A stretch of DNA of 19,591 nt from IMG/VR virus record IMGVR_UViG_2713896770_000036. The stretch is one strand, 5' to 3'. Origin of the DNA: a virus. Taxonomy: Duplodnaviria > Heunggongvirae > Uroviricota > Caudoviricetes. Shown piece after piece: positions 12,001 to 15,000 of the stretch; the stretch's first letter is position 1, and the number at the start of each line of letters is the position of its first letter. A program made the position numbers.

Positions 12001-15000
12001 TGCAGCGCGTACTGGCGTTTTACCAGAATGGTTTTCGAGAGATATTCGGTGAACAGGTTATGCATGAGGGAAATCATGGCACTCAGGGCAGTGTGTAGGC
12101 ACGTTGACGGTAGAAAGCATATGGGGGATCGATCGTTCTTGTTATGCTGTAAGAGCGAAAGCGCAGGCGCTGGGTATCAACAGGATGTTACGGGGTGACT
12201 TTCACTTGAGCTAGTGGGATCAATTTTACTGTTGGGGTGGGGGGACGTTAAGTTGCTGACAATTTCGAAATGTTTTTGATAAAGGCAGCGATTTTCTTTG
12301 ATGGAGGGGCTACAAAAAATTTTTCATGTGAAATATGATATCTGCGATGTTATCAAATGTGAAAATATTTATGAATCTGCAAAAAAGAAGAAAAGTTCAA
12401 AAACTAAACTATCGCGGGCAAGTTTCGAAACTGAAGAGGGGGATATTTAATTCTCTGAAAAGCACGGATTGGGAAGGAGTAGAAAATGCGAAGAGAAAAC
12501 TGGAATATTACAAACGCACTCGTAAGCTACGAGTCTCGAAGAAAAAGTTGACAACAAGTAATAAAAGGGTGGTTTTTTCTGCTCCGATATCTATTAATTA
12601 TTACAACGATCGTGATTTTGAAATCATGAATAAATTTTTAAATAATTTACGCGATTGCGTGTTGAAGAATAATCGTGTTTATATAGATTTTTCTTCAACT
12701 AAATATATAAGTGCAGCTGCTATGTTATCTTTTCTCGCTGAAGTTGATGTGCTTATTAAGAAAAGTGAATTTGGAGTAAATGCCATAGGGTTTTCACATC
12801 CGAAAGACAAGAAAATTGAAAGCATTTTGAATCAAGTCGGTTTCTATGATCTATTAAGGAAACCTAAAAGAGAAACTGAAAGTTATGATGATGTGACTTT
12901 TTGGAAATATACATCAGGTTCTTGTTCTGAGCCTCTTTTAGCAAAAGAAATGATGGTGGAAATAAAAAAAGAGTTAGAAAGAAAATCATCAAAAAAATTA
13001 TACCGTGGCTTTACTGAGGCCATGTCTAATTCTGTCGAGCATGCTTATGTTGATGATTTTATGCATACGGAAGATGACGAAACAGCTAAGTGGTGGACCT
13101 TTGCTGGCATACATGACAAAAATCTTACAGTGGTAATATGTGATAAAGGAGTGGGAATACCTTCAACATTGCCTAAAACACAAGGTGTAAGTGTGCTAAT
13201 GAACATCTTCAAAAAACTTAGAGTTCCATTAGCAAATGTAAAGGATTCTACTTATATAAAGGCTTCCACGTTACTTCAGGAAACGAGGACTGGGGAGCTG
13301 AACCGAGGTAAAGGCTTGAATGATATCAAATCGGTAATCGATTCAATAGGTGATGGTTTTATGGGGATTTTTTCATCAAAAGGGCGCTATATTTACAAAG
13401 GGAAAACTGGCATTATTAACGAAGTGCTTAGAGATTACAAAAGCTCTGTTAATGGTACTATAATTGAATGGACAATTCCTTGTGAGGTGGAAACTGAGTA
13501 GTATGAAAATTATAAAAGTAGCCAGTCGTTATCCTTGCCCAGGACCTCGTTTTAAAAGATTGGGGCCCGCTTCTGGTGAGGAGTTTCGTGAGTGGGTAGA
13601 AAGAGAGCTTAAACATTCACCAGATCTAACAATAGACCTTGATGGAACGGAGGGGTATGGTTCTTCTTTCTTGGAGGAGTGCTTTGGCGGATTGATTAGG
13701 CGTGGCGTGAGTCCTGATAAGGTTAAAGGGATTAAATTTATCTCAGAAGAAGAACCTGAGTTAATTGACGAGATAAATGAATATATCGAGGACGCTATAA
13801 AGGTATCTCATGGCTAATTCAAGTATCCAGGTCTGTACTTGGAGTGCAGACTTTTGGTGTAAGTTTTTTTCTTTGTTTAAAGATGAAAATCAGTATGTAA
13901 CTTGGTTTTTAGTTTTAGTTGGATGGGGGATTACGGCATATATTGCTTATCTCCAAACCACAAAAAGTAGAGGAGATGCTATTAAAGATGCTCATAATGA
14001 ATGGATCGGTGAGTTTAGACAAAAACTGGAGTTGCTTGAGGATTTTGCCTTAGAGTTCTGGGCTGAAGATAATAATAAAGAACCTACACTGGCGTTAGCA
14101 AAAATGAGTAGGGAGGTTAAGAGTTTAACTACTATCGCTAAAGAAATTGAAAGGGCCGGTGGTGAAAAATATAAGGCAAAATTGTTTAAGGAATTACGCC
14201 AAGCCATGACATATGATAGTGATGTTCACAACCGACCTCTAAGACCTGATTGTATGCAAATTGTTAGGATTAGAGAAACATGTGCAAGTTTGAGAAGTGC
14301 GTACGGGCGCAAAAGCTTGACTGAATAACCTCATATTGCTGAGTAGCTGGTACTGCATATTATTATGAAAACACATCGTGGTTTTTATATAAAAGCTGCT
14401 TATTATTAAGAGATCTGTTTTATGTTTTTGGCTAGTAAAATGTGATTCTTAACTTAAATGTTCCCTTACACTAGATTTATAATATCATCGTGTGATTTAT
14501 AAACTATGCATTAGTAATAATTAATTTTTCGGAAAAATAGTTAAGTAAAATTGCTGCGTGTGCTTGAGGCTATCTGCCTCGGGCATGAACACCAACGGCA
14601 GATAGAGAAAAGCCCAGTTAACATTACGCGTCCCGCAAGACGTTTAATATTAAACTTAGGCCAATTTCATGCTAGACACATGGATGTTAGCCTCTTACGT
14701 GCCGAAAGGCAAGGAGAAGCAGGCTATGAAGCAGCAAAAGGCGATGTTAGTCGCCCTGATCGTCATCTGTTTAACCGTCATAGTGACGGCACTGGTAACG
14801 AGGAAAGACCTCTGCGAGGTACGAATCCGAACCGGCCAGACGGAGGTCGCTGTCTTCACAGCTTACGAACCTGAGGAGTAAGAGACCAGGCGAGGGAGGA
14901 ATCCCTCGCCACCTCTGATGTGTCAGGCATCCTCAACGCACCCGCACTTAACCCGCTTCGGCGGGTTTTTTGTTGCGTGCTGAATGCGTAGGGTGAAAAA

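Follow-up and report, generated by a model that had tools for sequence, protein, structure and literature searches.

What is the function of the protein encoded by the last gene of a three-gene cassette carried by an E. coli lambdoid prophage? The cassette comprises K (GHKL kinase-like), S (DUF4325/STAS) and T, in the order K-S-T, and a preliminary description of the locus proposed that T, a small membrane protein, acts as the effector of the operon. Our analysis of the window, i.e., the whole stretch of 19,591 nucleotides of DNA, identified the following features:

12200-14550, unstranded: low-GC island holding K, S and T (31-42% GC versus ~50% in the flanks, from the composition profile)
12371-13501, + strand: gene K, encoding a 376 amino acid GHKL (Bergerat-fold) kinase-like protein (motifs, Pfam, AlphaFold2 and Foldseek)
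13503-13817, + strand: gene S, encoding a 104 amino acid single-domain STAS-like (DUF4325) protein (Pfam DUF4325, E 7.4e-12)
13810-13817, + strand: overlap of the S stop and the T start, 8 nt, ATGGCTAA (from the sequence)
13810-14328, + strand: gene T, encoding a 172 amino acid single-pass membrane protein, putative effector (ATG start, conservation, hydropathy and AlphaFold2)

In the RefSeq annotation of a 100%-identical locus (NZ_CP074756), the island is flanked on one side by the replication module of the prophage (DUF977 gene) and on the other by hokD/sok; the cassette of the window sits between the replication and nin-like regions and not beside the repressor. The three genes are tightly packed. 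The ATG of T at 13810 precedes the end of the S stop codon (TAA, 13815-13817), giving the overlap that had been reported previously, here measured at 8 nt, and the stop codon of K (TAG, 13499-13501) ends 1 nt ahead of the S ATG at 13503. Two of the earlier gene starts required revision: the start of K is most likely 12371 instead of 12335, since M1 is nearly invariant among homologues, and that of S was corrected from 13464 to 13503. In the related loci inspected, S and T overlap or are 1 nt apart, with the sole exception of one locus (L032) with a 13-nt gap. The overlap of S and T suggests translational coupling, and overlapping junctions fit stoichiometric co-expression of K, S and T. A promoter and terminator scan around the cassette returned no more sites than shuffled sequence did.

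We then considered whether T is a genuine protein. The T family includes 15 protein clusters with 44-82% identity and 45 invariant columns, and a search of 1.84 billion library proteins at E<=1e-3 gave 50 representative clusters of homologues; a spurious or chance ORF is therefore ruled out, and the 172 amino acid gene first described at these positions stands as an ATG-initiated, conserved ORF. Its only hydrophobic segment corresponds to the following feature:

13897-13953, + strand: transmembrane helix of T, residues 30-48, with the G38-W39 pair (hydropathy and conservation)

This segment, VTWFLVLVGWGITAYIAYL, has a Kyte-Doolittle 19-residue mean of 1.73, and the single hydrophobic helix noticed earlier near the N-terminus is a family-wide trait, as a segment scoring >=1.5 is present in 55/61 diverse members of the family. 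A GW pair lies within the transmembrane segment in 51 of these 61 members, and both G38 and W39 are invariant in the close family. Since K/R counts in the 61 members are 0.5 ahead of the helix and 4.0 behind it, T is predicted to adopt an N-out/C-in topology. The long charged C-terminal region of the preliminary description was also recovered, with 23 K+R and 21 D+E (~35% charged) over residues 49-172. The AlphaFold2 model of T (mean pLDDT 79) contains helices 28-85, 92-115, 123-141 and 149-164, the first of them continuous with the membrane helix, which together make a four-helix bundle. Based on this model, the cytoplasmic part of T is predicted to be a charged four-helix bundle.

Database searches assigned no enzymatic activity to T. 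Neither T nor the 61 family members had a significant match in Pfam, NCBIfam or PADLOC, a PIN nuclease domain included, the T family profile gave no usable match to PDB sequences, and the protein is modeled without an enzyme fold, as a transmembrane helix and a four-helix bundle only. Matches of T to "Fuseless," "Cas1" and "Vpu" were discarded as sub-threshold noise on the transmembrane segment, and the UniRef label "DUF4760" on one distant member was likewise set aside, as Pfam did not reproduce it. Across the cassette, no enzyme or DNA-binding domain was found in K, S or T besides the kinase, and PADLOC-DB v2.0 contains no model for any of the three (best matches E 0.026-0.039, to unrelated models). 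As no further candidate effector domain turned up in K or S and T lacks an enzyme fold, a membrane-acting role of T is the simplest reading.

The preliminary description placed T under the control of a "sensor module." Our analysis bears this out insofar as the partner genes are conserved together with T, and describes the module more precisely as a putative serine-kinase/STAS partner-switch. On the STAS side, S harbors DUF4325 alone according to Pfam, with no DNA-binding domain or HTH, and ends in an acidic C-terminal helix. A conserved motif, GYGSSFLEEAFGGL, is shared by 27 homologues, and the sequence analysis highlighted one residue:

13665-13667, + strand: Ser55 codon of S, predicted phospho-acceptor (invariant, aligned with the VapS phosphosite)

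Ser55 is invariant in all 27 homologues. When the S family profile was compared with PDB sequences, the two best matches were a STAS anti-sigma antagonist (3t6o, E 0.068) and VapS of Escherichia (9z7o, E 0.36), while the single S sequence gave no usable match. Ser55 aligns in register with S66 of 9z7o_A, which corresponds to Ser48 of VapS after subtracting an 18-residue tag.

On the kinase side, K begins with a basic helical hairpin (residues 1-~60), followed by an alpha/beta domain at 67-183 and a GHKL domain at 188-370. The window protein has weak Pfam matches to HATPase_c_2 and HATPase_c (E about 0.02), and HATPase_c_2 is matched by 21/25 homologues (best E 5e-5). The N-box residues E216, N220 and H224, the G1 box (D258-x-G260-x-G262) and the G2 box (G313-K-G315) are all invariant in 25 homologues. 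The AlphaFold2 model (pLDDT 79) has the ATPase domains of GyrB, CheA-P4 and Hsp90 as its best Foldseek matches, and NCBIfam gave weak matches to RsbW and SpoIIAB (E 0.04-0.06); neither the single sequence nor the family profile of K had a usable match among PDB sequences. The N-terminal part of the protein includes a further feature:

12371-12565, + strand: basic N-terminal helical hairpin of K (net charge +18 over 65 residues)

The hairpin, with helices 3-31 and 34-52 in the AlphaFold2 model and a mean net charge of +16 in 25 homologues, may act as a sensor element that binds nucleic acids or membranes. Residues 67-183 have a modeled b-b-a-b-a-b-a-a-b topology that fits STAS; hhalign against the S family gave a probability of only 2.5%, a Pfam STAS match was obtained in 1/25 homologues (E 0.09), and the profile of this domain found no STAS entry in PDB.

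K-S-T travels as one unit across Proteobacteria. A T-like third gene follows K and S at 23/23 genome-scan loci with downstream sequence, distributed over Gamma-, Beta- and Alphaproteobacteria and Arcobacter; in all 23, the third ORF encodes 123-198 amino acids with an N-terminal hydrophobic helix, and the T profile detects most of them. Every contig look-up also showed a T-like gene after K and S, and Marinobacter phage AS1 carries the cassette (T match E 7e-14). The operon logic proposed at the outset is thus well founded, both in the tight coupling of the three genes and in the strict inheritance of T with K and S. Among 5,426 complete E. coli genomes there are 24 near-identical copies, and a distant blastn search of the same genomes for diverged copies returned only these 24. 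A megablast search against a phage collection and a tblastn search with T against phages returned nothing.

The genomic neighborhoods agree with a role in defense. K-S-T is found in the P2 gpA-to-portal hotspot beside HicAB and a PvuRts1I-like/SRA enzyme, directly behind hsdS/hsdR (type I R-M), and adjoining DndB and an integrase. A position directly 3' of CI-type repressors is seen at five genome loci, two metagenomic prophages and the phages AS1 and KIRK, so that at least nine phages or prophages carry a repressor-linked copy on the same strand as CI. In addition, the family has a distant member in system #69 of the P4 hotspot, which Rousset et al. (2022) list as "HATPase_c | DUF4325, 1 TM in protein 3," with profile matches of 2.7e-32 for K, 2.7e-31 for S and 1.3e-7 for T; it is not among the systems evaluated in that study, whose Table S2 has no DUF4325/HATPase entry. 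Placements in P2/P4 hotspots, beside R-M systems and DndB and downstream of CI are typical of anti-phage cargo. It should be noted that many flanking genes at the genome-scan loci are housekeeping genes, which counts against a defense reading.

The closest, and only, characterized relative of K-S-T is VapKSC, which consists of the kinase VapK, the STAS antitoxin VapS and the PIN toxin VapC (Chambers et al., EMBO J 2026, PMC13373217). In this system, VapK phosphorylates VapS and thereby frees VapC, Ser48 is the demonstrated regulatory serine, and the phospho-mimic S48E abolishes toxin neutralization; the defining traits of VapKSC-type systems also include activation of the kinase by ssDNA and protection against phage. 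An independent survey describes PIN.4 VapC genes as "transcriptionally coupled to DUF4325." Both VapKSC and K-S-T are three-gene operons with the same gene order, in which the third gene is the output (for K-S-T, by analogy), and both are often found near defense genes. In both, the GHKL kinase has an additional domain at its N-terminus, and the STAS/DUF4325 protein, ~105-116 amino acids long, carries a conserved serine where helix 2 begins and ends in a short helix. K-S-T shows the GHKL motifs, the small STAS protein with an invariant serine and the coupled kinase-STAS-output order of VapKSC. The third gene is where the two differ, as the PIN nuclease of VapKSC is replaced by a single-pass membrane protein with a four-helix bundle, and K, unlike its counterpart, has a basic N-terminal helical hairpin. 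The sequence comparison between both systems covers S only, where similarity to VapS is marginal (E 0.36).

By analogy with VapKSC, T may be the output of a kinase-gated, toxin-antitoxin-like abortive-infection cassette of the prophage, in which a membrane protein takes the place of the PIN nuclease, a reading to which we give about an even chance of being correct. We infer S-T binding, S phosphorylation, the activating signal and the toxicity, membrane localization and mechanism of T as follows. In the uninfected lysogen, unphosphorylated S would bind the four-helix bundle of T and keep it inert. An infection or DNA-damage cue (by analogy ssDNA, possibly read by the basic N-terminal hairpin) would activate K, which would phosphorylate S at Ser55, so that S releases T. 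Free T would then self-associate through its GW-containing transmembrane helix and permeabilize or depolarize the inner membrane, stopping the infected cell ahead of phage release.

The effector reading of the preliminary description is therefore sustained only in part: the position of T as third gene favors it, by analogy with the VapKSC toxin, whereas a probable relative scored as non-defensive. The latter, named "VPUS" in the DefensePredictor 2026 screen (defensive = FALSE), is a 1871 bp system from an ECOR strain described as hypothetical + STAS-like + hypothetical (WP_000060412.1, WP_001244589.1 and WP_000154254.1). VPUS and K-S-T are likened by description only, through their three-gene description and comparable total length, and VPUS likely belongs to the K-S-T family, since several T members have sub-threshold Pfam matches to Vpu. 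A broad T profile search for the E. coli "VPUS" protein yielded no new E. coli member.

A protein made of one transmembrane helix and a soluble bundle might just as well serve as an anchor, an adaptor or a sensor. T might then hold K and S at the inner membrane, where they could sense, e.g., entering phage DNA or a perturbed envelope; the output would be K phosphorylating other proteins of the host or the phage, or S sequestering a target. We consider this unlikely: GHKL kinases of the SpoIIAB/RsbW type are specific to their STAS partner, the third gene of VapKSC is a toxin, and no other effector gene is conserved beside the cassette, the flanks of which differ completely between loci.

A kinase paired with a STAS protein is also the classical regulatory partner-switch, and the same-strand co-location with CI repressors in many phages, together with the lack of defense by VPUS in the screen, would suit a cassette devoted to prophage biology, such as the timing of lysis, induction or the maintenance of lysogeny, rather than to defense, with T as a membrane-tethered target switched by S phosphorylation. 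However, the cassette also occurs in P2/P4 cargo hotspots, behind type I R-M and beside DndB, and it moves among unrelated phage types as a low-GC moron, which makes such a role quite improbable. Moreover, the cassette has no sigma factor, phosphatase or DNA-binding domain at its side in the window, and neither a sigma factor nor a phosphatase was found within 13 kb on either side in the RefSeq annotation of the identical locus or in the called genes of six other cassette contexts. This separates K-S-T from the SpoIIAB-SpoIIAA and RsbW-RsbV modules, with which it shares a GHKL kinase and a single-domain STAS antagonist: those modules include a sigma factor and usually a PP2C phosphatase, both absent from the K-S-T operon and prophage, whereas the third partner of K-S-T is a membrane protein.

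Finally, small inner-membrane exclusion proteins are often the products of prophage morons that are co-expressed with the repressor, and T, a small predicted inner-membrane protein found in repressor-linked positions, could block incoming phage DNA at the inner membrane without killing, with K and S only tuning its activity, but this is very unlikely, as exclusion proteins seldom need a kinase/STAS switch and both the strict linkage of the three genes and the invariance of the predicted phosphosite point to an activity that is triggered and not constitutive.

The regulation of a downstream immune operon was considered as well. CapK and CapS regulate CBASS, Bub and other immune operons, the wHTH of CapS repressing transcription (PMC13373217). 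CapK is a GHKL kinase that phosphorylates its STAS-domain partner at a conserved serine, as is predicted for K and S, and the pair is often located behind R-M systems. However, CapS combines STAS with a wHTH and precedes an immune operon, whereas S is a STAS domain alone and no immune operon lies downstream of T, where hokD/sok is the next feature. Since S has no HTH, a CapS-type repressor is ruled out.

Returning to T as a membrane effector released by phosphorylation, a more far-reaching form of this reading takes the repressor-linked copies into account. These occupy the slot of lambda rexAB, immediately 3' of CI and on the same strand, and both systems have a membrane component proposed to collapse the membrane potential; there is no homology between them, RexB being polytopic and RexA not a kinase. 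Csx28 (PDB 8gi1), a membrane-pore accessory protein of CRISPR-Cas13b, is a further comparison system for T. Tentatively, and with somewhat less than an even chance, K-S-T could be a widespread abortive-infection system of prophages, a functional analogue of RexAB often co-transcribed with CI, in which a nucleic-acid-sensing GHKL serine kinase phosphorylates a STAS "safety catch" and so releases single-pass pores, viroporin-like or Csx28-like, of a family not described before. If so, the kinase/STAS partner-switch would extend from gene regulation and nuclease control to the direct gating of membrane pores.

If T is indeed a membrane effector released by phosphorylation, the recently described CapK/CapS-VapKSC module would be a general, swappable trigger able to drive outputs with no chemical relation to each other, namely transcription, RNA cleavage and membrane collapse. 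Many temperate phages, among them lambdoid and P2-like phages, Marinobacter AS1 and Francisella KIRK, would then use it in the rexAB slot of lambda, and T, whose family falls under no Pfam model, would represent a new family of small membrane toxins. The cassette is compact (three genes in 2 kb) and allows point-mutant predictions for each gene (K N220A; S S55A and S55E; T G38/W39), so that it is directly testable. As a minor observation, T matches phrog_34309 (function unknown; E 9e-5) and K matches phrog_3364 (E 5e-46).

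T, the membrane protein encoded by the third gene, is an obligatory, co-evolving partner of the kinase-like protein K and the STAS protein S, as the K-S-T cassette is found from both K and T as starting points. The cassette comprises the following features:

12371-13501 (+), K, kinase-like protein of 376 aa
12371-12565 (+), predicted N-terminal helical hairpin of K (residues 1-65), 30-38% Lys/Arg
13503-13817 (+), S, STAS protein of 104 aa
13810-14328 (+), T, membrane protein of 172 aa

The starts of K and S were corrected to 12371 and 13503, respectively, according to RefSeq and homologue alignments, and S begins 1 nt past the K stop. 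The preliminary description had presented T as a 172-aa ORF with one N-terminal hydrophobic helix, a long charged C-terminal region and a start overlapping the gene 2 stop. Each of these features was confirmed: the helix spans residues 30-48, the remaining 124 residues are ~35% charged, and the T ATG overlaps the S stop by 8 nt.

Linkage and coupling of the three genes are strict. Scanning genomes with the K profile retrieved 25 loci (Gamma-, Beta- and Alphaproteobacteria, Arcobacter). All those with downstream sequence (23/23) encode K (~345-380 aa), a STAS protein (~105-120 aa) and, as the third gene, an ORF of 123-198 aa that has a hydrophobic helix at the N-terminus or close to it. Within this set, a profile of close T relatives detects most of the third genes (E 1e-9 to 1e-2). 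In the reverse search from T relatives, K and S (or DUF4325) lay directly upstream in every contig look-up. This constant linkage rules out T as a swapped-in module.

T is conserved in 15 clusters of Enterobacterales and their relatives (44-82% identity, 45 invariant columns), and an exhaustive profile search returned 50 representative clusters at E<=1e-3. The transmembrane topology is conserved among 61 diverse members, in which the helix is hydrophobic in 55, a GW pair is present in 51, and K/R residues average ~4 after the helix vs 0.5 before it. In the structural model (pLDDT 79), the transmembrane helix runs into a long helix that packs with three more to form a four-helix bundle, predicted to be cytoplasmic because of the K/R excess after the helix. 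The bundle retains the motifs LE(D/E)xAxxFW and LRxxxT. No other cytoplasmic feature of T is as conserved as the latter (residues 130-134; window 14197-14211): conservation of both R130 and T134 is at least 90% across 61 very divergent members. It may serve as a contact site for S or, more speculatively, as a second phospho-acceptor. Two cysteines of the short N-terminal tail, which is predicted to be periplasmic (C9 and C17; window 13834-13860), are nearly invariant in the enterobacterial clade, where a periplasmic disulfide is possible; they are missing from distant members, whose transmembrane helix begins near the N-terminus. T and its 61 relatives matched no Pfam, NCBIfam or PADLOC model, and PHROGs places K, S and T in families of 'unknown function'.

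CapK/CapS and the three-gene VapKSC system have been described by Chambers et al. (EMBO J 2026, PMC13373217). VapK is a STAS+GHKL kinase. VapS, a STAS protein ending in a short helix, binds the PIN toxin VapC and inhibits it, with binding and neutralisation abolished by the phospho-mimic S48E; the proposed activator is ssDNA, and the operon protects against phage Bas42, the sole phage shown (PMC13373217). Independently of that work, one subgroup of VapC was described as 'transcriptionally coupled to DUF4325' in a survey of PIN domains. In contrast to VapKSC, K-S-T has no PIN toxin and its output is an unclassified membrane protein; it is therefore a variant of the VapKSC kind and not a member in the strict sense.

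The domain identities of K and S are established, as is the invariance of their catalytic and phosphosite residues. S consists of a DUF4325 STAS-like domain (E 7e-12) and no other domain; nothing else in the cassette is as conserved as its motif GYGSSFLEEAFGGL, and Ser55 is invariant in 27/27 sequences. The top two matches of the S-family profile among all PDB sequences were the STAS anti-sigma antagonist 3t6o (E 0.068) and VapS (9z7o_A, E 0.36). Ser55 aligns with residue 66 of 9z7o_A, which corresponds to VapS Ser48 after subtraction of an 18-residue tag, in an exact register with weak E-values.

The K of the window gives only weak HATPase matches on its own. The GHKL N-box, G1 and G2 motifs are invariant across 25 K homologues, 21 of which match Pfam HATPase_c_2, and the AlphaFold2 model of K (pLDDT 79) retrieves the ATPase domains of GyrB, CheA-P4 and Hsp90; the family is unambiguously one of GHKL ATPases/kinases. 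The model places an alpha/beta domain before the GHKL domain, its elements following a STAS-like order; sequence comparison gave no confirmation of a STAS identity. K residues 103-116 (window 12676-12717) are YIDFSSTKYISAAA, and a weak local alignment of the K N-domain with the S family sets ISAAAMLSF of K opposite the phospho-serine segment GYGSSFLEE of S; if the domain is STAS, this K segment would be non-phosphorylatable and pseudo-substrate-like. The basic hairpin (net charge +18 here; mean +16 over 25 homologues) may be a nucleic-acid (ssDNA?) or membrane-binding sensor element, and the text consulted describes none for VapK or CapK.

The K-S-T arrangement has been catalogued, and we found no characterisation of it in the literature. 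Rousset et al. (2022) list P4-hotspot system #69 ('HATPase_c | DUF4325 ... 1 TM in protein 3', 9 occurrences), give the arrangement as P2-hotspot cargo as well, and do not include #69 in their table of evaluated systems; profile matches for all three proteins show that #69 is homologous to K, S and T. DefensePredictor (Science 2026) tested 'VPUS' from an ECOR strain (1,871 bp, 'hypothetical + STAS-like + hypothetical') with the outcome defensive = FALSE. Several T relatives have sub-threshold Pfam Vpu matches on the transmembrane and juxtamembrane region, which plausibly explain this working name and suggest that VPUS belongs to the K-S-T family.

The best-supported reading, by analogy, is that K-S-T would be a kinase-gated module of the VapKSC kind, working as a toxin-antitoxin or abortive-infection system with T in the place of VapC. 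Our confidence in it is about evenly balanced because of the negative VPUS screen, itself to be weighed with the fact that VapKSC protection has been shown for one phage only. S would hold the cytoplasmic bundle of T until an infection or DNA-damage cue activates K, which would phosphorylate Ser55 of S; freed T would then self-associate via its GW-bearing helix and compromise the inner membrane. We infer every biochemical step of this mechanism. Alternatively, T could be an anchor or sensor and not a killer, the cassette could be a regulatory switch internal to the prophage, or T could be a non-lethal exclusion protein acting on DNA entry. The earlier proposal of T as the operon's effector is reasonable, and VapKSC now gives it a concrete precedent. 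Swapping of effectors for membrane proteins is common among defence systems.

The K-S-T cassette is small, and its family is widespread in temperate phages. The position directly downstream of the CI repressor is that of rexAB in lambda. At least eight phages or prophages, unrelated to one another, have a cassette there, on the same strand as a CI-type repressor (Peptidase_S24 or Phage_CI_repr): L012, L014, L021, L023 and L029 (upstream ORFs ~4800-5900), L031 (3492-5870) and L035/L036. The arrangement is seen in five genome-scan loci, two metagenomic lambdoid prophages and Marinobacter phage AS1, and likewise in Francisella phage KIRK (published gene table); this position implies expression in the lysogen. 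Unlike rexAB, the window's own cassette lies elsewhere, after the replication genes. In Pantoea and Yersinia, K-S-T occupies the cargo hotspot that lies between gpA and the portal gene of P2-like prophages. The copy of Yersinia enterocolitica (L003 2709-4489) is beside HicAB and a PvuRts1I-like/SRA (type IV restriction-like) gene, so that three cargo modules are stacked there. One cassette is in an integrase island adjoining DndB, and another directly follows the type I genes hsdS/hsdR in an island that also has Tn7-like genes. Among 119 flanking ORFs scanned in bulk were components of type I R-M, MADS, PDC-S11, MzaA and type IV DinG along with many housekeeping genes, for which reason defence-island enrichment is only suggestive.

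A lambdoid (Rac/Qin-like) prophage beside yebY in E. coli F2_407_2_2 matches the window at 100% identity, with the gene order integrase, excisionase, ralR, exo/bet/gam, truncated recE, kilR, a repressor/cro-like pair, ydaT-like and replication genes, a frameshifted DUF1627 gene, a DUF977 gene, K-S-T, hokD/sok and a nin-like region. The GC content of the K-S-T island is 31-42% vs ~50% in its flanks, and the cassette is present in only 24 of 5,426 complete E. coli genomes (all copies at least 99% identical), a signature of a horizontally acquired moron. The prophage is partly decayed (recE-like gene truncated, DUF1627 gene frameshifted in RefSeq; window 4315-6330 (-) and 11013-11763 (+)); K-S-T is intact in 24/24 of these genomes. 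A second small membrane toxin adjoins the cassette:

14558-14881 (+), complete hokD hok/sok-type type I toxin-antitoxin locus, ~230 nt downstream of T

Here, the sok Rfam model gives a score of 97.6 bits, and the 70-aa ORF at 14669-14881, annotated as hokD at 14726-14881 in RefSeq, has a Hok/Gef domain (E 1.7e-23).
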